Part shown: positions 23,201 through 64,000 of the stretch, piece after piece
How positions within the stretch are numbered: position 1 is the stretch's first letter
How the letters are laid out: every line of letters begins with the position of its first letter
NCBI GenBank assembly: GCA_965208835.1
Contig: OZ242358.1
Coordinates: 4,384,001-4,448,000 of the forward strand
Source: Candidatus Latescibacterota bacterium
GTDB taxonomy: Bacteria > Latescibacterota > UBA2968 > GCA-2709665
Direction of reading: 5' to 3'
DNA: 64,000 nt
Notes under the pieces: generated by a model
Database searches by the model: none
Seen by the model: only the letters and a program-made list of their open reading frames with translations
Told to the model about the DNA's origin: nothing
Translations under genes and position numbers: made by a program

Positions 23201-25257
23201 ATGAACAGGACAGCACGTCACTATGTCGCCCAGTTGCTGCTGCTGGCGATGTGTCATTTCGTAATATTCTGCATTTGTTATGTCGGCCACGCATCATCCC
23301 CTCCAGCCGGCAGCGTCCATTTCCCACTGCCTGTCGATCCCGAACAGCGGCAGTACGATGATCCCCGGCCCGCCGGAAAATTGGCGGCGGACCTTAACGT
23401 GGGTGAACCACGTACCGTAGGCAGTGGGAAATGGACGCTGCCGGGCGGATGATCTACTTCCTACCTAAGGACAAGCAAGCCCAGCCAGATGTAGACGCGA
23501 CGTTCGATACTTTGATGAAAGTCGTACAACAATCCTACGCCGAGCATATGGAATACCACGGATTCGGAAGGAAAACCTTCCGATTTGAAACCGGCGCCAA
23601 TGGAAAGGCCCTGGTACATCACGTGAAGGGGAAATTCAGCGATATGCACTACCATGCTGACGCGTTCCGCAAAGTCGAGGAAGAAGTGATTGGACGTTTT
23701 GATCTGGAACGAAACATCTACCTGGTATCCCTGGATGTAAGTAACAGCCAGGGGTGCGGATGGGGCTTACGTCATGGGCCCGAAAGTGGAATGGTAGTTA
23801 TACCCGTCACGTTTTTCAAGAATGAGCATGCCTGGAATTGTGGTAATGTTGCCCTTATTGCCCATGAACTAGGGCATGCTTTTGGGTTGTCGCACGATTC
23901 CTTCAGGAATGCCACTCGTAGCCCGTCGTCGTATCATACCGACTGGATGGTTGCATCTTTTGCCGCGGCCGAGTGGTTGGACGTCCACCGCTATTTCAAC
24001 GTCGGCCAGAGCTATCCTGAAAGAGATGAACCAACCACGATTAAGATGCTTCCACCGAGCGCCGTTCCGCCGAGGGCTATTCGGGTCCGTTTTGAGGTAT
24101 CCGATCCCGATGGACTCCATCAAGTGCAATTGTTCAACAGCACCGGCGAGGTCATTGATTTTCGAGGGGTTAAGGGCAAGAACGGTACGGTTGATTTTGT
24201 CACTCAAGAAGTGACCGAAGCCCCTGGCAATAAGGTGGAACTCCGTGTTATCGATGTATATGGCAACGTCGGGAGTAACCGCGATCCAATCGATATTCTG
24301 GCTCTGCTCACCCATGAAGGCGTGTCGATCCCCGATGAAAATTTGGCCGCGGTGGTGCGGCAAACTCTCGACTTGGCGCCGGGGGAAACCGTGACACAGC
24401 TAAGAATGTTGAGATTGAGGAGACTTGATGCCACCTCTCGTCAGATCACAGACCTTGCCGGGCTTGAACATGCGGTTAATCTCATAGACTTGGCTCTCGG
24501 CGACAATCAGGCGCGCGGCGTCACACCTTTAGCTGGATTGATCATCCTGAAAAAATTGGCCCTTTGGAACAACCGCATATCCGATATACGACCGCTGATG
24601 CGGATGAACTCTCTGGAACGATTGTGGTTGATCGGAAACTCGGTATCCGATCTCTCCCCTTGTGCGGGATTGACCGGTTTGAAGGTGATTCATCTCCGCG
24701 GGAATCCGATTGCGGATAAGAAGCCGCTATATGGATTACTGCGGCGGAATCCGTTCCTGGAAATTGATATTGAACTTGATATTCTAACACTGGAAATCAT
24801 CTCCGGCGACGGTCAGGAGGGGGTGCCCGGCGCCGCGCTCGCTGACTCTATGGTCGTTCAGGTACGGGATCAGTTGGGCGAGCCCCTGGGGGATGTTGTA
24901 GTGACCTTTACCGTCACTGCCGGCGGCGGGACGCTCTCGGATACCACCGTCACGACAGATGCCGATGGCCGCGCCAGTACCACACTGACTCTGGGCCGCA
25001 CTCCGGGGACCAACACCGTTGTTGTGACTTTAGCCAATCTCAAGCCTGTCATCTTTGCAGCCACCGTCAGGGTTCACGCCGACTTCAACGGCGACGGGGC
25101 GGTGGGCTTTCCAGACTTTCTGCAATTCGCGGCACACTTCGGACTAAGTCGCGGCGACGAAGGGTATAACGCGCGGTTCGACCTTGACGAGAACGGTGCC
25201 ATCGGGTTCAGTGACTTTGTGATCTTCGCCGGGGCGTTTGGCAAAAGCACCTCATGA
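23201..25257 (+). pseudogene. Secreted metzincin + LRR + Ig-like + dockerin-like protein, frameshifted by a 26-bp insertion
   Basis: RBS GGGAGG, signal peptide from 23201; HELGHAFGLSH; internalin-type LRRs; Big_1-like ISGDGQEG..TTDADGRA; C-terminal DFNGDG module; removing 23419-23444 joins the frames. Confidence 0.8.
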
Positions 25258-25545
25258 ACCGGATGATCCTACCATGAAATCGCCCGTTCATTATGCTGTT
25301 TTGTTCGTGTCGCTCGGCCTCTTCGTCCGGACGCTCTCCGCGGGCTATGCATCTGCCACGGCCAGCAGGACCGTCTGCGGGTGGCGGGCGGGAGTTCAAG
25401 CGCAGTAAATCGACCTCGTCAAGAGCATCGGGCGATGGCAGCATCCATCGCCTCATTTGCTATTTTCCGACCAATCGCGTCTTCACTATCCCTGCTTACA
25501 ATATCACCTGGTCTCAATCTCCGAATGCTCAAGTCTTTCGTCCAC

Positions 25546-27915: not shown

Positions 27916-28166
27916 TGCGCATCTCCCTGAAGGCGCTGTCGGTGCCACACGATTATATTCTCGGTACCCTCTTCCTGCTCGATTCAGCAATCCTGCCGAA
28001 TTGTCAGTTTGGAATATAAGAAAAAAAGTGCCATTAAATGAAATGAACACAAAAAAAACACGCAAAAGGGACATATTGGCACAGCGTCGACACATCGATT
28101 TCGATAAATTGGACCGCTCCATCTATCCGCATTAACACTAACCTGCCGGAGCAAGGATCGCACTCT

Positions 28167-30140
28167 ATGACATCAATAGAGAAAGTTGAATTCATCGCCA
28201 TTCTCATCTTGCTGATATTGGTTGCATTCGTTCCGACTGGTTCGGTCGCGCAGGGAGATCGTACGACACGACAAGGGACCACCGTCGGTTCCAATGGGCA
28301 TGACGCGACGTATCTGCCGGATTTCGACGGCGACGAGACGGTCGGCTTTGGTGATTTTTTACAGTTCGCGGCGAAATTTGGACGAAGTGAAGGTGATGAC
28401 GGATATGAAGCCCGGTTCGATCTGAACGGCGACGGGGAAATTGGGTTTTCGGACTTTTTGATCTTTGCGCAGAGCTTCGGGAAGGACTTTTCATTCGGGA
28501 TGCTCCTGCCCTGGGACCTGTCCGGAATCGTGCCGATCGAATCGGTCCGGTCTACACCCGAAGGTACGCGTATTTACATGCGGACGGAGTTTGCCATCGG
28601 CGCATTCGTCGACCTGCAGATGGAGTTCATCCAGGTCGTGGATGATTTTCTGCCGCCCATGCCGGTCTATATGGTGAAAGCCTCCGATTCCTTGCTGGTG
28701 GCCGCGGGAGGCCTCGCCAGGGGCATGAGCGGTTCCCCCATTTTTTCGGCGCAGGGCGTCTGGGGCGCGATCGCTTACGGCTTTAACGCCCAGGACAGCC
28801 CGCCCTACTACTTTTTCGCCACTCCCATCGAATGGGTGATCGGCGACAGGGGAATGGTCCCATTGGCTAAGACCTCATCCGTCTGGGGTGGAAGCGGCAT
28901 CGTACCTCTTGATGTACCGATCGTCAGTACAGGTCTCAACCGCACCCGGTTAACCCCGCAAGGGCGTCCGTCGATCCTGAACGATGCGATCTCGGCCGGT
29001 TTGACCAAGGACCGCCAGACGAGTTTTGCGCCTGGCAGGCCGCTGGCGGTGGCTTTGCTGCTGGGCGAACTGACACTCGGCGGTCTCGGAACCATCTCCT
29101 TCGTTGACGGCGACCGGGTGTATGGTTTCGGACACTCAATGTTCAAAGCGGGACCGGTGGCGCTTCCGATTATCGAAGCAACGGCAGCCGGAGGGAACTC
29201 CAATTTGCAGGCGCCGTACAAATTCGCAACGCTGAATCCTACGGTACGGGGAACGCTTACCGAAGACCGTGTTCCGGCGGTCCGGGGCATTATGGATGAA
29301 GCGCCTGACCTGGCGCAGATCAAGAGTGTGTATTCGTTTCCGACGGCCGGAGAAGTTGAGCTCTTGCATATGATTCCCACAGTTGGCGTGAGTCCGGATA
29401 TGTCCATCGATCTGGTCGCGGGCGCGTTCTTCATACCGCTGTCCAACCGGATCGAACTGCAATCGGACCGCAGCATGCGCATTGCTGCGTATGTTTCTTT
29501 TGACGGCTCCGATTCCACGCTTTCACGTTCGCGACTCTACGCCTCGCCCGAAGGACGGCTCGGTTCGTTGATCCGGTTCGCGTTCGCCGACATTTCCTCG
29601 GCACTCTCAGCTCTGATGATAAGGGACGACTACGCATTACACGTGACCGATGCCTCCGTGCAAGTGGAAGTGATCGCAGAACCCCGTTTCGCCAGGGTCT
29701 TTGGAGTGTCCGCGGACACAGTCGCCAGCCCCGGCGACACGCTGGCCGTTACCGCTTTGTTACGGGTGGGACGCCGGATCGATCGGGAGGTCGAACTGGC
29801 GTTTGGGGTTCCCGAAGCGTTTCCGCCGGGCGTCTACCTGCTCGAGGCGGGTTCGGCCGCGGCGCTCGGGGACGCTGCAGGTGGACCCGGATTCGGCCGC
29901 CTGCGACGTGACGAGACACTCGAAGAAGCCTTTGAGAGGGTCAACAGCGAAGACGACAACGTGGTCTTGAAAGTCCGGCTGACGTTCGATATGCCGCTCG
30001 GATCGCCGGGGGGTCAGCGTCCCCCACCCGGCAAAGAGGGAGGCATCAGACCGTCCGTTTCAATCCGTAAGAATGTCGATCTGTTCCTGCAGGGTTCAGT
30101 GAGCAAGTCCATAAGGGTCGTCGTACCGGAAGGGCCGTGA
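28167..30140 (+). CDS. Secreted dockerin-like + SpoIVB (S55)-like peptidase domain protein
   Basis: Signal peptide; DFDGDETVGFGDF..FDLNGDGEIGFSDF; GLARGMSGSPI, GAIAYG, YGFGHSM. Confidence 0.8.
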   Translation: MTSIEKVEFIAILILLILVAFVPTGSVAQGDRTTRQGTTVGSNGHDATYLPDFDGDETVGFGDFLQFAAKFGRSEGDDGYEARFDLNGDGEIGFSDFLIFAQSFGKDFSFGMLLPWDLSGIVPIESVRSTPEGTRIYMRTEFAIGAFVDLQMEFIQVVDDFLPPMPVYMVKASDSLLVAAGGLARGMSGSPIFSAQGVWGAIAYGFNAQDSPPYYFFATPIEWVIGDRGMVPLAKTSSVWGGSGIVPLDVPIVSTGLNRTRLTPQGRPSILNDAISAGLTKDRQTSFAPGRPLAVALLLGELTLGGLGTISFVDGDRVYGFGHSMFKAGPVALPIIEATAAGGNSNLQAPYKFATLNPTVRGTLTEDRVPAVRGIMDEAPDLAQIKSVYSFPTAGEVELLHMIPTVGVSPDMSIDLVAGAFFIPLSNRIELQSDRSMRIAAYVSFDGSDSTLSRSRLYASPEGRLGSLIRFAFADISSALSALMIRDDYALHVTDASVQVEVIAEPRFARVFGVSADTVASPGDTLAVTALLRVGRRIDREVELAFGVPEAFPPGVYLLEAGSAAALGDAAGGPGFGRLRRDETLEEAFERVNSEDDNVVLKVRLTFDMPLGSPGGQRPPPGKEGGIRPSVSIRKNVDLFLQGSVSKSIRVVVPEGP

Positions 30141-30674: not shown

Positions 30675-33179
30675 ATGCTGAATATCAGATATCCGGAACG
30701 CCGTTCTGTTAACCGCCGAATCGGTTTGGGGCGGGCCTCCTGCCTCGTGATGGTGTGCGTTGTCCAGATGCTTTGTCCTCCGCCGGTATCGGCCCAGGAA
30801 AGCTTCTCAGTGTCTGCGGACGTAGATAACGCGGCACAAGATCAGGGTTTCACGGCCATGGAGGCATCCCCGGAAGCGGCGGTTTCCATCCAGGTCTTCG
30901 CAACCAACGTCGGGCAAGCACAGGGCCTTTCGATTCGCATCGTCTACGACGGCGGCCAGGTCGTATACGACGGCGCCGAACCCGGCGACCTGTTTCCCGA
31001 TGCCCGGTTGGCTGAGCAGACCGGAACAAGCCCGACCTCTGTCACCCTGGAGATCACTTCGCAGGACGGGCGGGTTTCCGCTGCGGCCGGTCTTGCGGCA
31101 ACGGTCGGGTTTCGCACGACGGATGCGTTTACGGGCACCACCATCCGCATCGTCGAAGCAACGGTGGACCGCGGCGCGCAGCAGGAGACTTTGATGCCCG
31201 ATGTAGAGATCGCGCTGCATCCGCCCTCGGCGGGTCCATCCGCTGATTTCGACGGCAACGGAATCGTGGGTTTTCCCGATTTCGTGCTGTTCGTGTCGCA
31301 CTTCGGATCGACAGAGGGCGAAGCCGGGTATGACGCGGGATTCGATCTGGATGCCGATGGATCCGTGGGGTTTGCCGACTTTCTCGTATTTGCAGGCCAA
31401 TTCGGCCGAAGCGTACCGGCGCCGTCGCCGGACCGCGACGCGCTGGTCGCGTTGTACGACGCGACAGGCGGGTATAACTGGGCCACACAGACCAACTGGC
31501 TGACGGATAACCCAGTTTCCACGTGGCATGGCGTCACGGTGGCAGATGGTCGCGTCACGGGGTTAAGCCTGCCTCAAAACAACCTGACAGGCGCGATTCC
31601 TTCCGAATTGGGAAACCTCGCCAACCTGACCGCTCTGAATCTTCACCAGAACCGGTTGACGGGGGGGATCCCGTCCGTTCTGAGCAACCTGGTTAACTTG
31701 ACGGTTCTGAATCTTAACCAGAATCAGTTGACGGGGGGGATTCCGTCCGAATTGGGCAATCTGGTTAACCTTACGGATCTGAACCTTAACCAGAACCAAC
31801 TGACAGGTGGGATCCCGTCCAATCTGGGCAATCTGGTTAAGCTGATGGTTCTGAATTTTCACCAGAACATGTTGACGGGCGGGATCCCGGCCGAATTGGG
31901 CAACCTGGTTAACCTGACCGATCTGGGTCTTCACCAGAACCTGTTGAACGGGGGCATTCCGTCCGAATTGGGCAATCTGATTAACCTGACGGATCTGAAT
32001 CTTCACCAGAACCTGTTGAACGGGGGGATTCCGTCCGAATTGGGCAATCTGGTTAACCTGACCGCTCTGAATCTTTACCGCAACCAGTTGACGGGGGGGA
32101 TCCCGTCTGAATTGGGCGATCTTGCCAACCTCAAAGATTTGAATCTTTTCAAGAACGAACTGACAGGCGTGATTCCGTCCGAATTGGGCAATCTGGTTAG
32201 CCTGACGGATCTGAGCCTTAATCGGAACCAGTTGAAAGGAGTGATTTCGTCCGAATTGGGCAATCTGGCCAACCTGACCGTTCTGAATCTTAACCAGAAC
32301 GAGTTAACGGGGAGGATTCCGACCGAATTGGGCGGTCTGGCCAACCTGACGATTCTGAATCTTAACCAGAATGAGTTAACGGGGAGGATTCCGACCGAAT
32401 TGGGCGGTCTGGTCAACCTGACAGGTCTGCATCTTCACGAGAACGGGCTGACAGGTGTGATTCCGTCCGAACTGGGCAATCTGGCCAACCTGACGGTTCT
32501 GAATCTTCACCAGAACCGGTTGACCGGGGCAGTTCCGTCCGAATTGTGCAATCTGGCCAACCTGACGATACTGAGTCTTCACCAGAACGAGTTAACCGGC
32601 GTGATTCCGTTCGACCTGGGCAATCTGGTTAATCTGAAGAATCTCAGTCTTCACCAGAACGAGTTAACCGGCGTGATTCCGTTCGAATTGGGCAATCTGG
32701 TAAACCTGACAAGTCTACATCTTCACCAGAACGAGTTGACAAGTCTGATCCCACCCAATCTGGGCAACCTCGTCAGCCTTACGGTTCTGAGTCTTCAGCA
32801 GAACCAGTTGACGGGGGGGATTCCGTCCGAATTGGGCAATCTGGCCAACCTGAAGGAACTGCGTCTTCACCAGAACCATTTGGGCGGCCCTATTCCCGCA
32901 GTACTGGGTAATCTAACCAACCTCGAAGTGTTGCAACTTCACGAGAATACGCTCATTGGAGCGGTCCCGACCGAATTGGGCAACCTGACCGGCCTGAAGT
33001 TACTGACGCTTCACTCCAATCAGATCAGCGGCGCACTTCCTCAGAGCCTGACCGCATTGGAAGTGCTGGAGGAGTTCGTCTTTCATGGCGACGGAGGTGT
33101 TTGCGCGCCGCGCAGTGCGTCTTTTCAGGCGTGGCTGCAGGCTATCCGATATTTCAATGGACCAACCTGCCTGCGATAG
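30675..33179 (+). CDS. Secreted cohesin-like + dockerin-like + plant-type LRR protein
   Basis: RBS AAAGGAG; beta-sandwich N-domain; DFDGNG module; DRDALVALY..W.GVT cap; ~21 LxxLxLxxNxLTGxIPxELG repeats. Confidence 0.9.
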   Translation: MLNIRYPERRSVNRRIGLGRASCLVMVCVVQMLCPPPVSAQESFSVSADVDNAAQDQGFTAMEASPEAAVSIQVFATNVGQAQGLSIRIVYDGGQVVYDGAEPGDLFPDARLAEQTGTSPTSVTLEITSQDGRVSAAAGLAATVGFRTTDAFTGTTIRIVEATVDRGAQQETLMPDVEIALHPPSAGPSADFDGNGIVGFPDFVLFVSHFGSTEGEAGYDAGFDLDADGSVGFADFLVFAGQFGRSVPAPSPDRDALVALYDATGGYNWATQTNWLTDNPVSTWHGVTVADGRVTGLSLPQNNLTGAIPSELGNLANLTALNLHQNRLTGGIPSVLSNLVNLTVLNLNQNQLTGGIPSELGNLVNLTDLNLNQNQLTGGIPSNLGNLVKLMVLNFHQNMLTGGIPAELGNLVNLTDLGLHQNLLNGGIPSELGNLINLTDLNLHQNLLNGGIPSELGNLVNLTALNLYRNQLTGGIPSELGDLANLKDLNLFKNELTGVIPSELGNLVSLTDLSLNRNQLKGVISSELGNLANLTVLNLNQNELTGRIPTELGGLANLTILNLNQNELTGRIPTELGGLVNLTGLHLHENGLTGVIPSELGNLANLTVLNLHQNRLTGAVPSELCNLANLTILSLHQNELTGVIPFDLGNLVNLKNLSLHQNELTGVIPFELGNLVNLTSLHLHQNELTSLIPPNLGNLVSLTVLSLQQNQLTGGIPSELGNLANLKELRLHQNHLGGPIPAVLGNLTNLEVLQLHENTLIGAVPTELGNLTGLKLLTLHSNQISGALPQSLTALEVLEEFVFHGDGGVCAPRSASFQAWLQAIRYFNGPTCLR

Positions 33180-33494: not shown

Positions 33495-34529
33495 ATGATC
33501 GTCAGAAATAGGTTCGTCCGTGGAACGTTGATTTTGGTGGCACTTGCGTTCACAGGCATTGCCTTTGTTTATGCCCAGACTGCGGCGGATGCTGATTTTG
33601 ACGGAGATGGGACGATTGGATTCAGCGATTTTCTGGCGTTTGCGGGCAAATTTGGGACCGCTCACGGCGATGGTAGGTACGAGGCGAAGTACGATCTGAA
33701 TGGCGACGGACAGGTGGGTTTCTCGGATTTTCTCGCCTTCGCGGGATTTTTCGGCCGGACAGTACCGCCCACGCAGGTGCCCGTAAGCGAGGGCTTCGAC
33801 CTGTACGGAGACAACAACAGTCCATTTGGGATTACGTATGCAAACGAGAGGCTGTACGTCGTATCAATCAGCTTGAATGACGATGGTCCGGTTGCCGGGA
33901 CTCAGAAGGTGTATGCGTACAGTCTTTCCGGTCAACGCGACGTAGCGTCTGAATTTGAACTTAACACAGACATATTCCCGTACGGGATCGCCTACGCCGA
34001 TGGCCGGTTTTACGTCACGGCGACGGCCATTGACGGAACCGCAGGCTTGGAGAAGGTATACGCATTCCGTCCCGACGGCCAACGCGATGCGTCATACGAC
34101 CTAAATATTCCCGGTGACGATGATTTCCCGTTAGGGATCACGTACGCCAATGACAGGTTCTACGTGGTCGTGAATCCAGACGACACCGACATGACGCGGG
34201 TATTGGCATACAGCCGATCGGGTCCGCGTGACGGGTCTTCCGACTTCAACCTGTTCGATGAGACTGTGGAAAATGCGCTGCCAAATGGGATCGCCTACGC
34301 TGGTGACCGGTTCTACGTAGTCACCGTCAGTCTGGAAGTGGATGGTCCCGCAGGCGGCGCGCAGACGGTATTTGCCTACTCGCGTACAGGAATGCGTGAT
34401 GCGGCTTCCGACTTCGAACTGGATGCCGATAATTCGAATCCCTTCGGGATCGCGTATGTCAATAACCGGTTCTACGTGGTCGATACCATGGACAACAGGA
34501 TTTACGTGTATCGGGTATACAGGGAATGA
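33495..34529 (+). CDS. Secreted dockerin-like + beta-propeller-like repeat protein
   Basis: RBS AAGGAG; DFDGDG module; 5 x P.GI(T/A)YA.xRFYV..V(Y/F)AY..G.RD repeats. Confidence 0.85.
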   Translation: MIVRNRFVRGTLILVALAFTGIAFVYAQTAADADFDGDGTIGFSDFLAFAGKFGTAHGDGRYEAKYDLNGDGQVGFSDFLAFAGFFGRTVPPTQVPVSEGFDLYGDNNSPFGITYANERLYVVSISLNDDGPVAGTQKVYAYSLSGQRDVASEFELNTDIFPYGIAYADGRFYVTATAIDGTAGLEKVYAFRPDGQRDASYDLNIPGDDDFPLGITYANDRFYVVVNPDDTDMTRVLAYSRSGPRDGSSDFNLFDETVENALPNGIAYAGDRFYVVTVSLEVDGPAGGAQTVFAYSRTGMRDAASDFELDADNSNPFGIAYVNNRFYVVDTMDNRIYVYRVYRE

Positions 34530-34667: not shown

Positions 34668-37565
34668 ATGTTGACCTTTCGACGTCTCGCCTTAATTCTC
34701 GCGCCCCGAAAATTCCGATTACGGCAGGCCCCGTGTCTTGCAATCGTATGCATCGTTCTGAGTTTGTATCCCGTTCGAGTGGCATCCCAGGACGGTTTTT
34801 CTCTCTCTCCGGACGTGGATGGGGCAGCCGGGGACCAGGGTGTGACGACAGCGGAGGTCTCGCCGGAAGCAACCGTCTCCATCCAGATTTTCGGCAGCAA
34901 CCTGAGCCAGTCCCAGGGCGTTTCCGTTCGATTCGCGTACGACAGCGGCCAGGTCGTTTACGACGGCGCGGACGCGGGCGACGTGTATCCCAACGCTCAG
35001 ATCCTTGTGGAAACTGGCGTCAATCCGACGTCGGTCACCCTGGGCATCGCATCGCTGGGCAGCCGTGCCGAAACATCGGCGGGCCTCGTCGGTACGGCCC
35101 GCTTTCGCACCTCGGCTGCATTTACCGGTACGACTGTTCGGATCCTGAAAGCCGTACTGGGGGGTGGCGGCCAACAGGACACCCTGAAGATGAACGTCGG
35201 TATCGAGTTGAATCCTGCATCCGCGGGGCCATCTACCGACTTCGACGCCGATGGTATGGTTGGTTTTTCTGACTTTCTGCAGTTCGCGTCGCAATACGGG
35301 ACGTCGGTGGGCGACGGGCGCTATGACGCCCGGTTCGACCTGGATTCCGACGGTTCGGTGGGCTTCGCCGATTTTCTCGTGCTTGCGGGTCAGTTCGGAC
35401 AAGAGGTAGCGCAACCGCCACCCGAGGAATCAGACCGTGACGCGCTGGTCGCGCTGTACAACGCCACGGACGGGTACAACTGGACCACGCAGACCAACTG
35501 GCTGACGAACAGCCCGATCGACACATGGTACGGGGTTACGGTGAAGGACGGTCGGGTCACCGGTCTCGTCTTGACGGAGAACAATCTGACGGGCGAGGTA
35601 CCGGTCATGCTGGGAGACCTCGCCTCCTTGGACAGCCTGATACTCCGGAAAAACGAGTTGAGTGGTGATATACCTCCGAAGCTGGCCGATCTATTAAACC
35701 TTACGAAACTTGACCTATCGATCAACCAAATGAGCGGTAACATTCCGCCAGAATTGGGCAACCTTGTCAACCTTGTTAATTTGCAACTTGACCGAAATCA
35801 ACTCACTGGGACGATTCCGCTCCAATTGAGCAATCTTCGGAACCTAAGAGTACTTTGGCTGTGGCAGAATCCCATACACGGTCGCATTCCTACAGAGCTG
35901 GGGAAGTTGGAAAACCTGGAACTTCTTGGTCTCGCGTTCACTGAGTTGAGCGGACCCATTCCGGCGGAATTGGGAAACCTGCGCAACCTGGAGGTTCTGC
36001 TATTGGCCATAAACAGGCTGAGTGGTTCGATACCGTCGGAACTAGGAAACCTGATCAAACTGAGGTCACTGCAACTCCACAACAATCAACTTAGTGGGTC
36101 AATCCCTGAACAGTTGGGTAATCTTGGAAACCTTCAGAGGCTGTTTCTGGCCCAAAATCAGTTAACCGGCTCGATTCCAGAAGAGTTGGGTAACCTTGCC
36201 GAACTGACCGGGCTATCGCTTAACTTTAACCAGCTGAGTGGTGCAATTCCGGTCACATTGGGTAAACTCGAACGGTTGGAATTTCTCTGGATGAACAATA
36301 ATCGGTTGAGCGGCTCGATTCCTGAAGAATTCGGGAACCTTTCAATGTTGGTGTCCCTGGGATTGGGAAACAACGAATCCCTGATGGGTGTGCTTCCTCA
36401 GAGCCTTACGGGATTGACTGAATTGGAGAGCTTCTCCTTTGACGGGACGTCGTTATGCGCGCCGATAAACGAAGCCTTCCAACTTTGGCTAGCGGGAATC
36501 GAATCCAGAAGTGGAGCGAACTGCGCACCGGAATCCCAGCGCGAAGCGCTCGTTTCGTTCTACAATTCAACCGACGGAGACAACTGGACGAACAACACCA
36601 ACTGGCTGAGCGACGCCGATATTTCCACCTGGCACGGCGTTGGTGTTTCGAACGGTCTGGTTACGCATCTGGACCTGAGAAACAACAATCTGAAGGGTGA
36701 ACTTCCAGTTGAACTGGGCAATTTGACCAGTCTGGAGAGCCTGCACCTTCCTGAAAACTCATTGACGGGACGGATTCCCGTCGAATTGGGGAGCCTGACG
36801 AATCTTACTCGCTTCTGGCTGTACGATAACCAGTTAATTGGTGCGATTCCATTAGAATTGGGGAATCTGTCCAATTTGGTCACTCTGGACCTTAGGGTCA
36901 ATCAACTGAGCGGAACGATCCCGGACGAACTGGGCCATCTTTCGAAACTCGATTACCTGGGACTTGCCGAGAATCAACTGAGCGGTCAGGTACCGGTGGT
37001 GTTGGGTCAGCTGACTCACCTTATGGAGTTGCATCTTACCAATAATGAGTTGTCCGGCAGCATTCCCGCCGCGCTGGGCAATCTCTCCAACCTCAGATAT
37101 CTGGGTCTTGCCCACAATCAGTTGAGGGGCGGGATTCCCAGGGAATTAGGCGGCTTGGACAACCTGCAGGTGCTGTATACAAGCAAGAATGAATTGAGTG
37201 GTTCGATCCCAACAGAATTGGGCAATCTGTCAAATCTCAGAGAGCTGCTGTTGTGGGACGATGGATTGACCGGTACGATTCCCGCGGAATTGGGGAACCT
37301 GGACAACATTGAAGTGCTGCATCTTCCCGACAATTTGTTGAGTGGTCCAGTCCCAACAGAATTGGGCAATCTCTCCAACCTGACGGAACTGAAGGTCGGC
37401 GGCAATCAATTAAGTGGCGCTTTGCCGCAGAGCCTGACCGGGCTGGCAAATCTGAGGATCTTCGAATTTGGTGGCGACGGCAGCCTATGTGCGCCGCGCA
37501 GTGACGCCTTTCAGGCGTGGCTTCAGGGTATAAGAGAGACCAGCGGTCCGAATTGCCCGCAATAG
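34668..37565 (+). CDS. Secreted cohesin-like + dockerin-like + two plant-type LRR blocks
   Basis: Paralog of 30675; two DALV..Y...W..NTNWL caps, each followed by 24-aa LRRs and a LCAP..FQ.WL cap. Confidence 0.9.
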   Translation: MLTFRRLALILAPRKFRLRQAPCLAIVCIVLSLYPVRVASQDGFSLSPDVDGAAGDQGVTTAEVSPEATVSIQIFGSNLSQSQGVSVRFAYDSGQVVYDGADAGDVYPNAQILVETGVNPTSVTLGIASLGSRAETSAGLVGTARFRTSAAFTGTTVRILKAVLGGGGQQDTLKMNVGIELNPASAGPSTDFDADGMVGFSDFLQFASQYGTSVGDGRYDARFDLDSDGSVGFADFLVLAGQFGQEVAQPPPEESDRDALVALYNATDGYNWTTQTNWLTNSPIDTWYGVTVKDGRVTGLVLTENNLTGEVPVMLGDLASLDSLILRKNELSGDIPPKLADLLNLTKLDLSINQMSGNIPPELGNLVNLVNLQLDRNQLTGTIPLQLSNLRNLRVLWLWQNPIHGRIPTELGKLENLELLGLAFTELSGPIPAELGNLRNLEVLLLAINRLSGSIPSELGNLIKLRSLQLHNNQLSGSIPEQLGNLGNLQRLFLAQNQLTGSIPEELGNLAELTGLSLNFNQLSGAIPVTLGKLERLEFLWMNNNRLSGSIPEEFGNLSMLVSLGLGNNESLMGVLPQSLTGLTELESFSFDGTSLCAPINEAFQLWLAGIESRSGANCAPESQREALVSFYNSTDGDNWTNNTNWLSDADISTWHGVGVSNGLVTHLDLRNNNLKGELPVELGNLTSLESLHLPENSLTGRIPVELGSLTNLTRFWLYDNQLIGAIPLELGNLSNLVTLDLRVNQLSGTIPDELGHLSKLDYLGLAENQLSGQVPVVLGQLTHLMELHLTNNELSGSIPAALGNLSNLRYLGLAHNQLRGGIPRELGGLDNLQVLYTSKNELSGSIPTELGNLSNLRELLLWDDGLTGTIPAELGNLDNIEVLHLPDNLLSGPVPTELGNLSNLTELKVGGNQLSGALPQSLTGLANLRIFEFGGDGSLCAPRSDAFQAWLQGIRETSGPNCPQ

Positions 37566-38035: not shown

Positions 38036-39199
38036 CTACTACTTAATTGATTAAATTAGAGTATTTATTATCAACGAATTTCGGTGTGACTTTCGTAGCC
38101 TTCCACTGGAAGGGGTGTGCGTTTTCGTTATAGGCGTCGATGAAGTGGTCGATAGCGGATCGGAGGTCGCGTATCGAGGCAAAGGACCCGCCTTTGAGTG
38201 CGCTTCTCCACAGGATGCTGAACCAGATTTCGATCTGGTTGAGCCAGGATGCGTGTGGGAGGGTGTAGTAGAAGTGGACATTGGGATGCTGCGGCAGCCA
38301 TCGGTCGTTCTTAGGCTTGTGCGTGTTCAGGTTGTCCAGGATGATGTGGAGTTCCTGATCGGGGTATTCGGCGACAAGTTCGTTCATAAAGCTCAAAAAC
38401 TGGCGTCGTTTGCGCCTTTTGTAATGCCCGGCCTTGACCCAACCCGTGGCGACGTTTAGTGCAGCTAATAACGTGGTGGTGCCGTTTCGCTTGTATTCGT
38501 GGCTAAAGCCGGTGAGGGCTTTGCCGTTGGGCAGCTTGAGCCATCCCTGCACCCGTTGCAATGCCTGGATCGCGGGCTTTTCGTCGACGCATAGGACAAT
38601 CGCGTTTTCGGGAGGTTCCAGATACAGCCCCACGATGGATGCGGCCTTGGTGGCAAATTCGGGATCTGTGCTGATACACCAGCTGCGTCTTCTGGCAAGT
38701 GAGATGCCGTGGTTGCGCAACACCTGCCAGACATAGTGGACAGAAATCCCCAGCTTTTCGGCCAACAAAGGGCCGGTCCAAGTCCCATAGCCCTTGGGCG
38801 GGGCTTCGTCCAATGCCCGCAAGATGCGCTTTTCGGTCAACGCATCGTACACCGCAGGCTTGCCCGATCTCGCCTTGTCCTGCAATCCGGCCAAGCCCGA
38901 CTCGCGAAAGCGCCGGCGCCACTTGCACACCGTCGCCTCGCGCGTTCCCAGGTGTCTGGCTATGTCCCGATTTGCTGTGCCCTGCGATGCTGACAGCACA
39001 ATCCTGGCGCGCAGCACATAGCGGTGTTGCGTCTTGCCGGAACGGGTCCAACTCAACAACGTCTCTTTTTCCTCGTCACTCAACGTGATCAACACTGCGG
39101 GGCGGCTCATAGGCGGTCTCCTCTCCACAATTGAATTGAGATCGATTCCCTATGAGCACAAAATATATTAATTCGCTTTTTTTGTCAAGTAGACACTAG
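38036..39199 (-). mobile_element. IS630-family insertion sequence
   Basis: Transposase ORF; ends at CTAG (39196-99) and a CTAC/TA site near 38036; boundaries approximate. Confidence 0.85.
38043..39128 (-). CDS. IS630 transposase
   Basis: RARIVL, KWRRRF, LCVDEK, YKRNGT, ILDNLNTHK, SWLNQIEIWF; likely start ATG 39110. Confidence 0.93.
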   Translation of the reverse strand: MERRPPMSRPAVLITLSDEEKETLLSWTRSGKTQHRYVLRARIVLSASQGTANRDIARHLGTREATVCKWRRRFRESGLAGLQDKARSGKPAVYDALTEKRILRALDEAPPKGYGTWTGPLLAEKLGISVHYVWQVLRNHGISLARRRSWCISTDPEFATKAASIVGLYLEPPENAIVLCVDEKPAIQALQRVQGWLKLPNGKALTGFSHEYKRNGTTTLLAALNVATGWVKAGHYKRRKRRQFLSFMNELVAEYPDQELHIILDNLNTHKPKNDRWLPQHPNVHFYYTLPHASWLNQIEIWFSILWRSALKGGSFASIRDLRSAIDHFIDAYNENAHPFQWKATKVTPKFVDNKYSNLIN

Positions 39200-39635
39200 T
39201 CTGATTCCATTCAATCTGGGTAATCTGGCTAATCTGAAGGTTCTGAATCTTCAGCAGAACCAGTTGACGGGGGGGATTCCGTCCGTATTGGGCAATCTGG
39301 TCAACCTGAAAGATCTGAGTCTTCACCAGAACCATTTGAGCGGCGCCATTCCCGCAGCACTGGGTAATCTAGCTGACCTGGAAGTGTTGCAACTTCACGA
39401 GAATGGGCTCGTTGGAACTGTCCCGACCGAATTGGGCAACCTGACCGGTCTGAAGTTACTGACGCTTTTCGCCAATCAGATCACAGGTGCACTGCCTGAG
39501 AGCATGACCGCATTGGCCATGCTGGAGGAATTCTTCTTTCGGGGCGACGGAGGTCTTTGTGCGCCGCGCAGTGCGTCTTTTCAGGCGTGGCTGCAGGCTA
39601 TCCGATATTTCAATGGACCAACCTGCCTGCGATAG
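39200..39635 (+). pseudogene. 3' fragment of a plant-type LRR gene paralogous to 30675
   Basis: Ends with the identical CAPRSASFQAWLQAIRYFNGPTCLR; begins at the IS end in a TSLIP repeat. Confidence 0.88.
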
Positions 39636-39844: not shown

Positions 39845-39913
39845 GAACTTGATGGCAACGGGACGGAGGAGTTCGCGGATCTCTTCAGATTCATCGATGC
39901 GTTTGGATCGTAG
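39845..39913 (+). pseudogene. Orphan half dockerin-like remnant
   Basis: ELDGNGTEEFADLFRFIDAFGS* resembles the second Ca-loop of the shared module. Confidence 0.5.
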
Positions 39914-40004: not shown

Positions 40005-41183
40005 ATGAAGTGGAAACGATCGTCGAATCTCGCGCTGTTATTGGTCGCAGTTCTGTCAGCGCAGGAAAGCTACGCCCAGACACCACTGAAAGGGCATACG
40101 GATTGGGTCAATTCCGTGGCGTTTTCACCCGATGGGAATCTGCTCGCTTCCGGTTCGGACGATGAAACGGTCAAGTTGTGGGACGTGGTGAAAGGAGAAT
40201 TGGTTGCTACACTGGAGGGACACAGCGGCTCGGTCAATTCCGTGGCGTTTTCGCCGGATGGAAAACTGGTCGCTTCCGGATCGGACGATAGAACGGTCAA
40301 GTTGTGGGACGCGGCGACGCACAAAAACATAACCACCTTTGAAGAAACCGCTTGGACGGAAGCAGTGGCGTTCTCGCCCGATGGACAGTTGCTGGCCTCC
40401 GGTTCGTGGGATGACGCGGTTACGCTGTGGGACGTGGCGACACACACAAGCGTCGCAACCCTTGAGGAATCGGACGCGGTCTTTTCATTGGCGTTTTCTC
40501 GGGATCTGCTGCTCGCTACCGGATTGGACGAAGGTCCGGTCAGGCTATGGGACGTGGCCAGGAGAGAACCCGTCGCTACCCTGGAACAGCATACGGACGA
40601 CGTTAATTCTGTGGCGTTTTCACCCGATGGGAAACTGCTGGCTTCCGGTTCGGATGATGGAGTGGTCAAACTATGGGACGTGGCTGAAAGAAAGATCAGT
40701 GCGTCTCTTGAACAGGTCGAAGGTCACAGTTTGGACGTTGTCCACTCAGTGTCCTTTTCACCGGATGGGACGCTGCTGGCTGCGGGTGGTTCCTGGGACG
40801 GTGCGGTGAGGCTGTGGGACGTAGCGACACGGAGAATTGCTGCAACCCTTGAAGGAAATTCAGATGTCGTCTTTGCAGTGGCGTTCTCGCCGGATCCCAA
40901 GGTGCTGGCTTCCGGTACTGCAGACGGCACATTGCAGATATGGGACATCTCTTCCAATTCCACGTCTCGGCCTCCGACTCCACCTCAAGATCCGACTGCC
41001 GACTTCGACGGCGACGGGACGGTCGGATTCGGTGACTTTCTGCTGTTTGCCGCCGCATTCGGTCGAAGTCAAAGCGATGCCGGATACGATGTGCGGTTCG
41101 ATCTGGACGGGAACGGCGCGATCGGGTTTGGCGATTTTCTGATTTTTGCGGGCGCGTACGGGAACAAAACATCTTCTAATTGA
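40005..41183 (+). CDS. Secreted WD40 7-bladed propeller + C-terminal dockerin-like module
   Basis: GH..VNSVAFSPDG.LLASGS.D..VKLWD repeats; Pro-rich linker; DFDGDG module; RBS GGAGG. Confidence 0.93.
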   Translation: MKWKRSSNLALLLVAVLSAQESYAQTPLKGHTDWVNSVAFSPDGNLLASGSDDETVKLWDVVKGELVATLEGHSGSVNSVAFSPDGKLVASGSDDRTVKLWDAATHKNITTFEETAWTEAVAFSPDGQLLASGSWDDAVTLWDVATHTSVATLEESDAVFSLAFSRDLLLATGLDEGPVRLWDVARREPVATLEQHTDDVNSVAFSPDGKLLASGSDDGVVKLWDVAERKISASLEQVEGHSLDVVHSVSFSPDGTLLAAGGSWDGAVRLWDVATRRIAATLEGNSDVVFAVAFSPDPKVLASGTADGTLQIWDISSNSTSRPPTPPQDPTADFDGDGTVGFGDFLLFAAAFGRSQSDAGYDVRFDLDGNGAIGFGDFLIFAGAYGNKTSSN

Positions 41184-53416: not shown

Positions 53417-53438
53417 TCTTATCGAGAAAGGATCGCAT

Positions 53439-54838: not shown

Positions 54839-54845
54839 AGAAACG

Positions 54846-55187
54846 AAGCAGGCCCTGGCGGACTGAATGAATGTGATGGCAGGCGGAAACCCCAGCGGAT
54901 GCCCCCCTGTGACTTCCGGCGCGCCGTCGCAGTCGCCAGCGCCCAAAGGGGATCCGATGCAACCGGCGCTTCAGAACATGGAGACGGTCTGTGGAAAGAA
55001 ACACGGGAGCGGTTTATCGGTCAATGTCGACGCCCGGTTCAATTGCCTGGCGGCGTTCGGCGACTACTGCACGCTCAATCGTGCGCCGAGTGAAGAAGCC
55101 AGGACGAAACTGCGCGCCAGGTTGGCGCAGAACTGCGGGGTGTTACAGGGTATCGGCGCGGCGGGTAAATGTTCGTATTGTCGATAG
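54846..55187 (+). pseudogene. Orphan copy of the 6-Cys C-terminal domain of the 59140 ankyrin protein
   Basis: KQALAD-TGA-MNVMAG matches DQAITDWARVMAG; DPMQ.AL.NME.VCG..CLAAFGD.C..NCGVL.GIGA.GKCSYC shared. Confidence 0.75.
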
Positions 55188-56656: not shown

Positions 56657-56942
56657 CTCGCGAGCTGCACGGGGTTTAGGCAGGGAAGCCAAACCCTGGC
56701 GGCGATGATGTCCAACCGCCAATGATGTCACCTCCAATTCGTATCGGTTGCAGGTCAGGATCCGCGAAGGTTTGAGAAACGGTACAGGTATCATGGTTTC
56801 GAATGCGTTCGGAGCAGGGAAAGCCGACGCGACTATTCGAGTTGGTAACCTATCGCGCGACTTCCAACGCAACTTGAACAATCGAACCCGGATAGAGTTT
56901 TCGCTCGATAATGGCAGCATGAAGGACAATTGGAGATTCAGC

Positions 56943-58790: not shown

Positions 58791-59139
58791 ACGGGCCACG
58801 TGACGGGTTCCAGTTTAAACGCGCCAATATCGCCCATGAAGCGGTGAGCGCGGATCTGTCAACAGGCAGTGACGGCTAGTTTTGCAAGGATGCACAGGCG
58901 CAGTTGATCAGAGATTCCCAAACCACTCTTTTTGGCGAGTCGCATTTCACGAATGGGTCAGGTTTAACCCTACACTTCTCGCATTAGTGTTGTCAGTATC
59001 TTTCTGCCATTTGTCGCGCCATCAAGGAACGGATTAAAGAATCGGACGGCTCTTGTCCGAGTTGTCAAACGAGAGCATTGGTGGGATTTCACGAGGCCGG
59101 TTCCGTTATGCGTGGTTGTGTGCTTCTTGGGGAGACCCG

Positions 59140-62400: not shown

Positions 62401-62519
62401 AATCACTCCCCCCTTGAGGGGGAGTCGCAGAAGCCGAGCCGTCCCCTGAGCTTGTGGTCTCTGAGCTTGCTTGCATTGAGCTTGTCGAAAGGGCCGGCGA
62501 CGGCTGATGCGGTGGGGGG
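62401..62519. repeat. CTCCCCCCTTGAGGGGGAG composite palindromic element
   Basis: Hairpin head; three internal TGAGCTTG units; homologous to 33205-33316. Confidence 0.72.
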
Positions 62520-62524
62520 TTAAG

Positions 62525-64000
62525 ATGAAAAGTCTCCGCATCGTTGTCCTGGTCATTGTCTGCGGAATTGGGACGTGGTCGCCCCATGCGCCTGCCTTCC
62601 AATCCGGCCCGTTTCCCGACTTTGACGAAGACGGCGTAGTGGGTTTTGCGGACTTTCTGCAGTTCGCCGGTCGGTTCGGTGCGGCACGGGGCGATCAGAC
62701 GTACGATGAACGGTTCGACCTGGATGGCGACGGCGCAATCGGGTTTCCGGATTTTCTCATCTTCGCCGGCAGCTTCGGCAAGGCATCGCCTTCCGCCGGC
62801 GACGAGAACGACGTGAACATACCGGATACCAACCTGCGCGCCGTGATTGCTGACAGTCTCGGCAAGGCGCGCGATGCGCCTATCACCCGTGCGGAAATGG
62901 CGACCCTCACCGAACTCGAGGCGGATGAAGCCGATATCAAAGATCTCACCGGACTTCAGTTCGCCTCCAATCTCGAATCCATCTGGCTCACGAACAACCC
63001 GCTTTCGCATCTCTCCCCGCTTTGCGACCTGACCGATTTGAAGGTGCTGGTTCTGTATGGGAATTCGATCTCCGACCTCAAGCCGCTGTCCGGGTTGACG
63101 AAATTAACGGACGTGCACCTCAACGACAACAGGATCTCCGACGCTTCTCCCCTTGCGGATCTGACCAATCTCACGTCCCTTACGCTCGGCGGCAACGAGA
63201 TAAAGGACCTCGCCGCGTTGTCAGGCCTGACCGGTCTGACGAATCTCGCGCTCTTTCGCAATGGTATCTCCAACGTTTCGGGTCTGTCGGGCCTGACCGA
63301 TCTGACCGAACTCGACCTCGGCGAAAACGCGATTTCGGACATATCCCCATTGTCCGGTCTGGTCAATCTGAAATTGCTCAATCTCACCCAGAACAGAATA
63401 CCCGACTGCGACTCGGATATCACGGCGCTGTCTGCCCTTACAAATCTGAATCATCTGAGTTTAAGCGACAACAGGATCTCGGACTTTTCTCCTTTGGTCG
63501 CCAATACGGGACTCGGCCGCGGCGACGCGGTCGACGTGCGCGACAACCCGTTGAGCGTCGAATCGATCAGCACGCACGTGCCCGCCCTTCAAAGCAGAGA
63601 CGTGGAAGTACAATTCGACAACCGGCCGCCGGTTTCACAATGTGTCCCGATCCTTCCACCGGAAGATTCCGTCGACGCGGGTTCTTCTCACACGCTGCAA
63701 TCAGACCACCTTCACATTGATTACGACGGAATAAGGCACGGGGACCGGCGCGGCGGCGTCGCCGCCGTCGCGTATGCGGATTTCAACAGTGACGGCCACA
63801 TTGATGTTTTTTACGCGCCCAGCGATGGTTTCCAGCACGACCCAATTCCCGCTGAGATGTACCTGAACGACGGTACGGGGTGTTTCACGTTCGACGCCAG
63901 TATCCTGGGTGCGAACCCGCCCGGCAGGTTGGCGCCGCGAAAGGCACTCCCGGGCGATTTCAACGGTGACGGCCGAATGGACGTCTTCATTTTGGACCAT
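62525..64000 (+). CDS. Secreted dockerin-like + internalin-type LRR + FG-GAP/VCBS protein (partial, runs off the right edge; missing from the ORF track)
   Basis: MKSLRIVVLVIVC.. signal; DFDEDGVVGFADF module; IPDTNLRAVI LRR cap; ADFNSDGHIDVF..YLNDGTG; GDFNGDGRMDVF. Confidence 0.88.
   Translation, partial: MKSLRIVVLVIVCGIGTWSPHAPAFQSGPFPDFDEDGVVGFADFLQFAGRFGAARGDQTYDERFDLDGDGAIGFPDFLIFAGSFGKASPSAGDENDVNIPDTNLRAVIADSLGKARDAPITRAEMATLTELEADEADIKDLTGLQFASNLESIWLTNNPLSHLSPLCDLTDLKVLVLYGNSISDLKPLSGLTKLTDVHLNDNRISDASPLADLTNLTSLTLGGNEIKDLAALSGLTGLTNLALFRNGISNVSGLSGLTDLTELDLGENAISDISPLSGLVNLKLLNLTQNRIPDCDSDITALSALTNLNHLSLSDNRISDFSPLVANTGLGRGDAVDVRDNPLSVESISTHVPALQSRDVEVQFDNRPPVSQCVPILPPEDSVDAGSSHTLQSDHLHIDYDGIRHGDRRGGVAAVAYADFNSDGHIDVFYAPSDGFQHDPIPAEMYLNDGTGCFTFDASILGANPPGRLAPRKALPGDFNGDGRMDVFILDH

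Follow-up and report, generated by a model that had tools for sequence, protein, structure and literature searches.

Proteins that share one dockerin-like tag in the genome of an uncultured, probably sponge-dwelling bacterium with relatives among the Latescibacterota are predicted to belong to a genome-wide, non-cellulosomal cohesin–dockerin display system attached to type IX secretion machinery (T9SS), a reading to which we give a probability of about 60%. The tag, a 57-aa duplicated Ca-loop/helix module, occurs in nine proteins of the window (the whole 64,000-nt stretch of DNA analysed here); it probably clips proteins without a CTD to the cell surface, and may also be their route out of the cell. 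The window appears to be a cargo array of this system and itself encodes no anchor protein; the likelier receptors of the tag are predicted to be cohesin–CTD proteins (D class) encoded outside the window.

A type II-like dockerin on diverse exported proteins

The nine tags of the window (Table 1) start within 3 nt of the positions given in the preliminary description and share 49–74% pairwise identity (mean 61%). An HMM built from them detected 86 tagged ORFs in the genome, with exactly one tag each (86/86), and had no matches on reversed ORFs. Against the PDB, the tag profile placed type II dockerins on top (2y3n_B, E = 1.5e-12; 4wi0_B, 3.3e-11); 4u3s_B, 5k39_B and 2b59_B also matched, and the best four matches were all dockerins (E from 1.5e-12 to 1e-8). 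A calmodulin-like EF-hand pair was rejected, dockerins scoring far better against the profile. PF00404 had 44 matches in the genome, 37 above cut-off, and exceeded its cut-off in just 1/9 window proteins (hmmscan).

Dockerins were recognised by two repeats, with a 12-residue Ca loop (acidic or Asn at positions 1, 3, 5 and 12) and a helix. A strict loop pattern took in 68 regular copies (18/86 fell outside it), and in 68/68 of these D1 and D12 were invariant in both halves, which were spaced by 33 residues in 53 copies and by 27 in 15. Residues A17, F20 and G21 agree with the type II helix, Gly occupies loop position 9 in roughly half the copies, and an AF2 model consists of two loop-helix units. 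The Ca2+ ligand residues are present, making Ca2+ binding a putative property of the tag, and the tag surface is nearly invariant. By its sequence the tag is thus a dockerin, as had been proposed; it is of a type II-like kind with internal symmetry.

Most tagged ORFs have a Sec-type signal peptide: a heuristic called one in 70/86, compared with 78/400 background ORFs. Nearly all tagged ORFs are without CTD, transmembrane helix or lipobox; a CTD was found in 2/86 genome-wide and in 0/9 window proteins. The tag is carried by 18/20 LRR ORFs and 12/13 WD40 ORFs of the genome, and tagged cargo includes 2,500-aa FN3/Ig adhesin-like proteins, an M60 peptidase, M8-like peptidases and heparinase-like lyases. 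The earlier view that the cargo comprises proteases and repeat proteins, mostly not glycosidases, was borne out by Pfam and NCBIfam: no cellulases or hemicellulases were found in the nine window proteins plus 36 others (Pfam) or 37 (NCBIfam, strict E-value), 4/86 tagged ORFs lying outside these scans. The dCache, FGE-like and heparinase-like cargo could function in the periplasm.

Table 1. Tagged genes and associated features of the window (dockerin coordinates in brackets)
Feature	Position	Strand	Remarks
5′ part of first tagged gene (signal peptide, N-terminus)	23201..23419	+	frame break ~23420-23445
3′ part of frameshifted gene: metzincin-like (HExxHxxGxxH), internalin-like LRR, Big_1, C-terminal dockerin	23431..25257	+	
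Dockerin tag 1, C-terminal	25078..25248	+	
Signal peptide, N-terminal dockerin (28317-28487), SpoIVB/S55-like peptidase	28167..30140	+	
Signal peptide, N-class cohesin, dockerin (31242-31412), plant-type LRR	30675..33179	+	
N-class cohesin-fold domain of 30675	30795..31220	+	PF00963 18.8 bits; 55% identity to modelled 34788-35213 domain
Signal peptide, N-terminal dockerin (33591-33761), NHL-like beta-propeller	33495..34529	+	
Signal peptide, N-class cohesin, dockerin (35235-35405), two plant-type LRR blocks	34668..37565	+	
N-class cohesin-fold domain of 34668	34788..35213	+	AF2, Foldseek, VIA
IS630-type transposase (HTH + DDE_3)	38043..39128	-	decayed part of cluster
Orphan LRR tail	39188..39635	+	vs 30675 gene end: 88% DNA, 81% protein identity
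Decayed half dockerin, short-linker subtype	39845..39913	+	resembles C-terminal halves of tags
Signal peptide, WD40 propeller, C-terminal dockerin (40998-41168)	40005..41183	+	
Signal peptide, dockerin (41571-41741), internalin-like LRR, M8-like HExxH peptidase	41421..43673	+	
Signal peptide, dockerin (44849-45019), LRR, M8-like HExxH peptidase	44702..47515	+	paralogue of 41421
Signal peptide, dockerin (62615-62785), LRR, FG-GAP repeats	62507..64000	+	continues beyond window

Cohesin–CTD proteins as candidate receptors

D-class cohesins occur in the genome as direct fusions with a T9SS type A CTD. Signal peptide–cohesin–CTD proteins are the products of five small genes, one of them broken, and two 1600-aa proteins end in tag–cohesin–CTD. 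TIGR04183 scored above cut-off on the tail of 4/4 cohesin–CTD proteins tested, and a D-cohesin was followed by a CTD in 30/30 fetched loci. The class is distant from known cohesins by sequence (best E 6e-4), with PF00963 above cut-off for 3/7 D domains and a fourth at 22 bits; the Foldseek matches listed for a D-cohesin model were cohesin entries only. Among the untagged cohesin–CTD genes, 5/6 lie ≤364 nt from a tagged ORF, compared with 2% of random positions within 1 kb of one, and in 10/24 small-anchor loci the D–CTD gene is directly upstream of a gene encoding the second, N class of cohesin with a tag, although the genomes compared are related and a single genus supplies many of the gene-pair loci as orthologues. 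Tag, D class and N class are each present in 53/53 genomes of the order, and in 137, 128 and 73, respectively, of a phylum sample of 151 genomes.

The genome-wide tally of tags against cohesin carriers that had been suggested gave 86 tagged ORFs against about 8 anchor genes. No ORF in this genome had more than two cohesin-like domains, and no multi-cohesin primary scaffoldin with a cellulose-binding module was found in it. A complex prediction combining D-cohesin, N-cohesin, two Ca and the tag scored 0.08 and 0.07 against a mark of 0.32, in a three-chain-with-ions design that lies outside the calibration and with controls that were unfolded; these scores speak neither for nor against binding.

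A second cohesin class next to the tag

An AF2 model of the 34668 N-domain (pLDDT 91.8) matched 2vo8 with a VIA Z of 15.1 (rmsd 2.5 over 129 residues). VIA ranks 1–16 were all cohesin entries, the next fold scoring Z 11.5, and Foldseek likewise returned cohesins. As modelled, then, the domain before the tag is a nine-strand jelly-roll cohesin fold, and the cohesin-like character ascribed to it in both proteins held, the 30675 domain being 55% identical. By sequence, the N class is distant from known cohesins (best E 4e-3): PF00963 was over cut-off in neither window N-domain (30675, 18.8 bits vs 24.1 required; 34668, no match). Iteration of an HMM seeded only with the two N-domains of the window settled at 3 proteins; further cohesin classes were found by reading sequences and with group HMMs. 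The N-domain lies 4–13 residues upstream of a tag in 29/30 loci. One protein without the tag, encoded at 4915306 in this genome (G000), combines an N-like cohesin with a CTD, and others do so in L089, L095, L096 and L125; N-like domains may therefore also be receptors.

The two classes differed in which sheet was conserved, when compared at equal overall identity (about 0.6). Here the docking sheet was assigned from strand order in AF2 models and from the dockerin-binding face, which we take to be strands 8-3-6-5. With strands so inferred, the presumed docking sheet was 0.68 identical in small D-cohesins (other sheet 0.62) and 0.68 in the large-protein D class (other sheet 0.65), a small margin. 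The corresponding values, again on AF2-inferred strands, were 0.59 vs 0.71 in the window N subgroup and 0.61 vs 0.82 in the largest N subgroup; in a third, small N subgroup (4 sequences) the two sheets were equally conserved. Across the N class the presumed docking sheet was the least conserved part (entropy 2.31 vs 1.61 bits). Because of their CTD fusion, order-wide presence, tagged neighbours and conserved presumed docking sheet, D-class proteins are favoured as sockets. The window N-cohesins are most likely secondary: each may partner its own dockerin in the manner of an X-module, or they may be adaptors that differ in specificity.

Proposed export and display

T9SS parts in the genome comprise SprA, PorU (a C25 peptidase with CTD, in a 1939-aa frame) and eight PorV-family proteins above cut-off, and SprA was present in 48/48 order genomes. 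Neither a secretin nor a T2SS ATPase was found in the genome; secretins were found in 0/15 and 0/21 genomes of two genera, and a secretin in 9/48 order genomes. For the T9SS motor the GldM model had no match, its control being silent as well, a ShlB search with a silent control gave no information, and there was one weak CsgG-like match. T9SS is the only fitting outer-membrane exporter among those found, type I, type V and lipoprotein routes being partly covered.

In the display system that we favour, Sec would bring cargo and anchors into the periplasm, where the dockerin would bind Ca2+ and clip onto a D-cohesin; the CTD would then direct the anchor through SprA, and PorU would attach it to the surface. 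Displayed in this way would be LRR, WD40, FN3 and propeller domains together with zinc or serine proteases, with roughly 86 cargoes in competition for roughly 8 anchor genes. Since a CTD occurs in only 2/86 tagged ORFs, no secretin or T2SS ATPase was found, and SprA, PorU and PorV are present, it is possible that the cargo is itself exported by T9SS on the cohesin–CTD protein. The dockerin would then be a putative transferable, trans-acting type IX export signal, which we put forward tentatively and hold to be somewhat doubtful. CTD-less cargo would bind a small cohesin–CTD shuttle in the Ca-rich periplasm, pass folded through SprA and be held on the surface-anchored shuttle, so that a 57-aa tag at either end would give any domain both export and display. 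Such a signal would explain why 18/20 LRR and 12/13 WD40 ORFs are tagged, and how genera without secretin deliver eukaryote-like repeat proteins. Against it stand the 9/48 order genomes with a secretin and the incomplete exclusion of type I, type V and lipoprotein routes; vesicles are possible also.

Alternative readings

It had been proposed that the window N-cohesins are sockets for the same tag, so that proteins with both parts could chain or branch. As adaptor scaffoldins, cohesin–tag and cohesin–cohesin–tag proteins would then probably stand on a D–CTD anchor. This reading was unsupported as stated, the second, CTD-fused class keeping its presumed docking sheet and the N class the opposite one, and we regard it as unlikely. 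The true cohesin fold, found in 53/53 order genomes, speaks for it, as do the recurrence of tandem N–N–tag proteins (L108, L109, L119, L128, L131, L136, L137) and the 10/24 loci in which a D–CTD gene precedes an N–tag gene, the anchor-then-adaptor order that the available text of the planctosome model describes (PMC6461901). However, the presumed docking sheet is variable although the tag surface is nearly invariant, N sits where type II dockerins have their X-module, and identical specificity would be expected to cause uncontrolled self-polymerisation.

Could the dockerin itself be a T9SS sorting signal, read by a PorV-family shuttle with no cohesin involved? The eight PorV-family proteins, the C-terminal placement of 41/86 tags and the failure to find a secretin would fit, but 45/86 tags are found at the N-terminus or in the interior, in contrast to CTDs, tagged ORFs have no gene of the PorV family within 5.9 kb but do have cohesin–CTD genes nearby, and the conserved cohesin–CTD proteins would be left without a role; we consider this very unlikely. 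Retention of tagged proteins in the periplasm, or exit in outer-membrane vesicles, with the tag as a gathering device rather than a surface clip, seems just as improbable: FN3/Ig adhesin-like, M60 and M8-like cargo fits the outside best and the conserved cohesins bear an outer-membrane export signal, even if 84/86 tagged ORFs are without CTD, neither a secretin nor a T2SS ATPase turned up, and dCache and FGE-like cargo is typically periplasmic. The least probable reading takes the tag for a module that acts alone, without a cohesin partner, by binding Ca2+, stabilising its protein or associating with itself. Pfam gives weak EF-hand matches to the tag, and non-cellulosomal dockerins without known partners reportedly exist; yet dockerins are ahead of calmodulin by seven orders of E-value, every tagged ORF has exactly one tag, and tag and cohesins co-occur, adjoin and are fused.

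Relation to known systems

The best tag matches come from type II cohesin–dockerin pairs of Gram-positive hosts, which use SLH anchors and lack an outer membrane: the B. cellulosolvens Cel48A dockerin (2y3n), A. cellulolyticus ScaA XDoc (4u3s, 4wi0), and C. thermocellum CipA XDoc with the single-cohesin anchor SdbA (2b59, 2bm3). Symmetric halves and single-cohesin surface anchors are shared with these pairs. Their X-module, however, is Ig-like, whereas here a cohesin fold precedes the tag, position 10 is Phe and the cargo is not cellulases. The best sequence and fold matches of the N class are the C. perfringens NagJ GH84C (2w1n/2ozn) and GH33 (2vo8) cohesins, which likewise form part of the cargo itself, in a setting that is host-associated and non-cellulosomal; that glycosidase/toxin complex differs in having few members, glycosidases and no T9SS. 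A canonical cellulosome, unlike this system, combines a multi-cohesin CBM scaffoldin with dockerin cellulases. SprA, PorU, PorV and CTDs are held in common with Bacteroidota T9SS (type A CTD TIGR04183; type B CTD/PorP shuttle pairs), in which, by contrast, known cargo bears its own CTD; here 84/86 tagged ORFs have none, so that the signal would act in trans. T9SS transports folded proteins, according to the available text of PMC9251779.

Candidatus Stygibacter (Cloacimonadota; Williams et al. 2021, PMC8542988) is proposed, in the available text and by genome inference only, to form a cellulosome-like complex of signal-peptide enzymes, including peptidases, with dockerins, and a cohesin protein that would attach to the surface by its C-terminal CTD, as here. 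It differs in its one 3,755-aa multi-cohesin scaffoldin with CBMs, a few C-terminal dockerins and polymer digestion, compared with 86 tagged ORFs, tags in any position, several single-cohesin CTD anchor paralogues, cargo that is mostly repeat proteins and in part fused to a second class of cohesin; that text does not address export of CTD-less cargo. The planctosome of freshwater Nemodlikiaceae (Andrei et al. 2019, PMC6461901), again in its available text, also has a non-cellulosomal anchor, a cohesin+dockerin adaptor and zinc peptidases, but belongs to another phylum, has a lamin-tail anchor with no T9SS CTD, comprises far fewer parts, and is presented there without mention of LRR/WD40 cargo.

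Sponge symbionts, including Latescibacterota, encode many eukaryote-like repeat proteins, while delivery secretion systems occur in few lineages and the route is left open (Robbins et al. 2021, PMC8163846, available text). Chen 2020 (PMC7081726, available text) attributes to Farag 2017 a report that Latescibacteria have cellulosome-affiliated enzymes; part of the present finding may thus already be in print. The main text of Youssef 2015 (PMC4454575) has no mention of dockerin, cohesin or cellulosome, and a T9SS effector review (PMC10202324) none of ‘piggy’ or ‘hitchhik’. Among the matches listed for non-cellulosomal dockerin–cohesin literature, all concerned lignocellulose or starch, as far as the listed entries tell; by the same kind of entry, none was on topic for dockerins or cohesins of sponge symbionts, none described T9SS piggyback export, and those listed for dockerins of Latescibacteria dealt with fungal microbiomes. 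Nearly all LRR and WD40 proteins of one such genome share one dockerin, and T9SS, the only fitting outer-membrane exporter found, would be within their reach by way of small cohesin–CTD proteins; the delivery question is thereby reduced to a two-protein binding assay and a reporter test. If export in trans is true, T9SS would be extended to signal-in-trans export, an entire bacterial order would have reused cellulosome parts for a coat that faces the host, and Gram-negative cells would gain a modular tool for surface display; if the display part alone is true, the system extends the Stygibacter and planctosome proposals on a large scale but in a foreseeable direction.

Gene content and decay within the window

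Signal peptides, ascribed in the preliminary description to all tagged proteins, were seen by eye in 8/9 (the heuristic found 7/9, missing 28167); that of the 23431 ORF lies in another frame, starting from ATG 23201. Paralogues of this first tagged gene have GEPRTVRMIYF uninterrupted at the break site. An assembly slip at 23420–23445 was set aside, the letters being identical in contigs of four runs, which all come from one sample and hence are not independent. The plant-type LRR label stood for 30675 and 34668, whereas the four other LRR proteins are of the internalin-like bacterial type (LRR_4), both proteins scanned having NCBIfam internalin rows below cut-off. Cargo labels were in line with Pfam: 23431 has the metzincin motif HELGHAFGLSH with LRR_4 and Big_1, 28167 a Peptidase_S55 match of 22.7 bits (below the cut-off of 25), 33495 an NHL-like propeller (E 3e-5), and 41421 LRR with an M8-like match (E 0.0016, below cut-off); 44702 has no Pfam M8 row and is M8-like by its sequence paralogy to 41421. 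The 62507 gene has a 757-aa frame when read in the genome. The exported ankyrin and MORN-like proteins of the window have neither tag nor CTD. Poly-C/G phase-variation tracts of at least 9 numbered 0 in the window and 4 genome-wide.

The IS630-type transposase at 38043 is present in a single copy genome-wide (blastn E 1e-20). Judged by its sequence, the orphan LRR tail at 39188 is a relic of a third gene of the cohesin–dockerin–LRR type. The tag remnant noted earlier at 39845 (ELDGNGTEEFADLFRFIDAFGS) proved real, a decayed second half of the short-linker subtype that is absent from the 86 HMM matches.

The tag is a dockerin

The repeated module noted in nine proteins of the window was recovered by both pattern search and HMM as a 57-aa tag, with 49-74% pairwise identity between window copies. 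The same HMM detected 86 tagged ORFs in the 5.18-Mb single-contig genome, each without exception bearing one copy, and none among reversed ORFs; the tag was C-terminal in 41/86 ORFs and N-terminal or internal in the remainder. Its dockerin identity, raised in the preliminary description, is upheld by profile comparison (89 sequences), in which type II dockerins came first (2y3n_B, E 1.5e-12; 4wi0_B, 4u3s_B, 5k39_B, 2b59_B) and calmodulins ranked after them (E about 1e-5); PF00404 matched 44 times genome-wide, 37 over cut-off. Among the 68/86 copies that fitted a strict pattern of two repeats, both halves invariably had D1 and D12 and retained helix residues F13, F16, A17, F20 and G21, and position 10 was mostly Phe. 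This symmetry, together with the titles of structures 4u3s and 4wi0, suggests two equivalent binding faces per tag. Records labelled Poribacteria, Gottesmanbacteria, Planctomycetaceae, Nitrospirae and Saccharibacteria carry similar tags (L019, L032-L036). Two genes end in only half a dockerin, preceded by a coiled-coil-like start, a hydrophobic stretch and Gly-rich repeats.

Coordinates of features in the window and in the source genome (G000)
Feature	Window (nt)	Genome (nt)
Tag copies	25078, 28317, 31242, 33591, 35235, 40998, 41571, 44849, 62615	
Half-dockerin genes (L041, L053)		936997, 3522189
Small D-cohesin-CTD genes		10883, 628252, 2404620 (broken), 2828077, 4104536
1600-aa protein locus (L051)		4915306-4931952
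FN3/Ig proteins, variant dockerin (L039, L050)		620706-628178, 4477605-4485134
FN3/Ig variant-dockerin fragments		4468444, 4471191, 4474541
Six untagged CTD proteins, tandem array		1193260-1206166
M8-like peptidases, shared tail	41421, 44702	1252169, 1256859, 1290967, 4079894
One-protein two-component system	25546-28122 (-)	
Second IS630-type transposase	52259-53416	
LPPEI-module ORFs	37775-38030, 43867-44283, 47775-48680, 49419-50840, 50905-51645, 56748-58790, 59053-61920	4452513
DUF4189 protein and neighbours	53862-55187	
DUF4189 region, segment of the 234-nt similarity	61683-61915	

Two classes of cohesin

One class, N, comprises ten domains across nine tagged ORFs of the genome, each directly preceding a tag or another N domain; one untagged protein with a type IX secretion system (T9SS) C-terminal domain (CTD) carries an additional N-like domain. 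The cohesin-like domain previously described before the tag does have a cohesin fold in the predicted model: that of the N domain and tag of ORF 34668 was confident (pLDDT 91.8, pTM 0.69), cohesins occupied VIA ranks 1-16 for the N domain (best Z 15.1, C. perfringens cohesin 2vo8), and Foldseek also matched it to cohesins. The second class, D, is a distant relative (hhalign probability 61%) with seven domains in the genome and none in the window; its model is a cohesin by Foldseek, and the tail of D proteins passes TIGR04183. Five D domains form small signal peptide-cohesin-CTD genes and two end 1600-aa proteins as tag-cohesin-CTD. Look-alike cohesin-CTD clusters were present in Zixibacteria, Fidelibacterota and Latescibacterota. 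The two 1600-aa proteins, which are acidic, are followed by an N-like cohesin-CTD gene in an order kept across genera (L089, L095, L096, L125), and are candidates for a core surface lattice or primary scaffold.

Which cohesin is the likelier receptor of the tag

Given occurrence, gene order, adjacency, and motif and sheet conservation, we take D as the main receptor of the tag. The N domains, those of the window included, would more likely serve as X-module-like partners or specialised adaptors than as the sockets originally proposed. Among 151 genomes of the phylum, related and hence not independent, the tag occurred in 137, D in 128 and N in 73; all three were found in 53/53 genomes of the order (23 to at least 43 tags per genome), and in family f3 D was found in 64/67 and N in 16/67. 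A CTD followed D in 30/30 fetched loci and a tag directly followed N in 29/30, while 5/6 untagged cohesin-CTD genes of the source genome lay ≤364 nt from a tagged ORF (random positions: 2% within 1 kb). Strand 3 of D carries a near-invariant GYG and strand 5 is entered through an NLL..G..LF loop, a pattern resembling the type II SGYQ motif. Sheet conservation was compared in subgroups of equal divergence, with strands mapped from model secondary structure and general cohesin topology. In D the presumed docking sheet had a slight edge (0.68, against 0.62 for the opposite sheet); in both large N subgroups it trailed (0.59 vs 0.71 and 0.61 vs 0.82), and in a 4-member N subgroup the sheets did not differ. 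The accompanying idea of branching stays alive, since an anchor (cohesin-CTD) gene precedes an N-tag gene in 10/24 small-anchor loci, all of one genus, and N-N-tag proteins exist.

An asymmetric variant dockerin lies at the C-terminus of 2,500-aa FN3/Ig proteins. The one beginning at 620706 has its own cohesin-CTD gene 74 nt downstream and a 16-C run upstream; its dockerin and that gene are possibly a dedicated plug-socket pair.

Proposed export and display

A signal-peptide protein without a CTD or lipid anchor is expected to remain periplasmic. By a crude test, 70/86 tagged ORFs had a signal peptide (vs 78/400 background ORFs); one had a possible lipobox, four a single further hydrophobic stretch, and only two were among the genome's 24 CTD proteins. 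The genome encodes SprA and eight PorV-family proteins, as well as a PorU-like C25 peptidase that bears a CTD and lies 4.8 kb away from a cluster of tagged genes. Neither secretin nor T2SS/T4P ATPase was found in it (completeness 97.8%) by searches positive in 6 and 13 of 14 control genomes, respectively; across the order SprA was present in 48/48 genomes and secretin in 9/48 (0/15 in the source genus, 0/21 in genus g6).

From sequence, we put at roughly 60% the probability that tags dock on D-CTD anchors and so display cargo on the surface, a reading built on observed domains, folds, gene order, co-occurrence, T9SS presence and cargo without CTD. The tag would bind Ca and, if it pairs with D-cohesin at all, would do so first in the periplasm; as T9SS transports folded proteins (PMC9251779), export of cargo together with its anchor would be a natural consequence, PorU would anchor the complex on the surface, and the displayed proteins may act toward the host. 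Such export in trans is judged less likely than not, and the cargo has some chance of leaving by a type I, type V or lipoprotein route or in vesicles instead.

This proposed display system shares with the cellulosome the principle of an anchor system but differs in that a multi-cohesin scaffoldin and cellulases were not found here. It extends published non-cellulosomal cohesin-dockerin systems, which include Ca. Stygibacter with its CTD-bearing scaffoldin (PMC8542988) and the planctosome (PMC6461901). Chen 2020 attributes cellulosome-affiliated enzymes in Latescibacteria to Farag 2017; the open-access papers searched yielded neither this system in sponge-type Latescibacterota nor T9SS co-export.

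Cargo and the window array

Candidatus Latescibacterota MAGs were the nearest named records for 27/35 loci; the lineage (Robbins 2021) and bin names that are presumably sponge-derived hint at a sponge habitat. Cargo labels in the preliminary description match Pfam, some under cut-off. Genome-wide, 18/20 ORFs with ≥3 LRR motifs and 12/13 with ≥3 WD motifs were tagged, and 25/86 tagged ORFs contained HExxH. The M8-like peptidases share a C-terminal tail, PIYVVD..G.IVR, which recalls one type A CTD strand and is probably part of the peptidase family.

The first array gene is broken (signal peptide from 23201, frame shift about 23420-23445), with identical letters at the break in contigs from four runs, all of one sample. 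The cluster is decaying at 37.6-40 kb, where an IS630-type element and an orphan LRR tail, which shares 88% identity with the last part of ORF 30675, accompany the expected tag remnant at 39845, a half tag. Within the array, a single polypeptide combines GAF-PAS-HisKA-HATPase-receiver-OmpR DNA-binding domains.

A second common N-terminal module (about 95 aa, starting LPPEI, with TPR-like helices) occurs on eight ORFs, all inside the window or just past its end, fused to MORN-like or ankyrin repeats, with dockerin in 0/8 and CTD in 0/8; this set is a local expansion, several copies of which have decayed. In the DUF4189 region, a 234-nt stretch matches the terminal part of the ankyrin gene at 81% identity.
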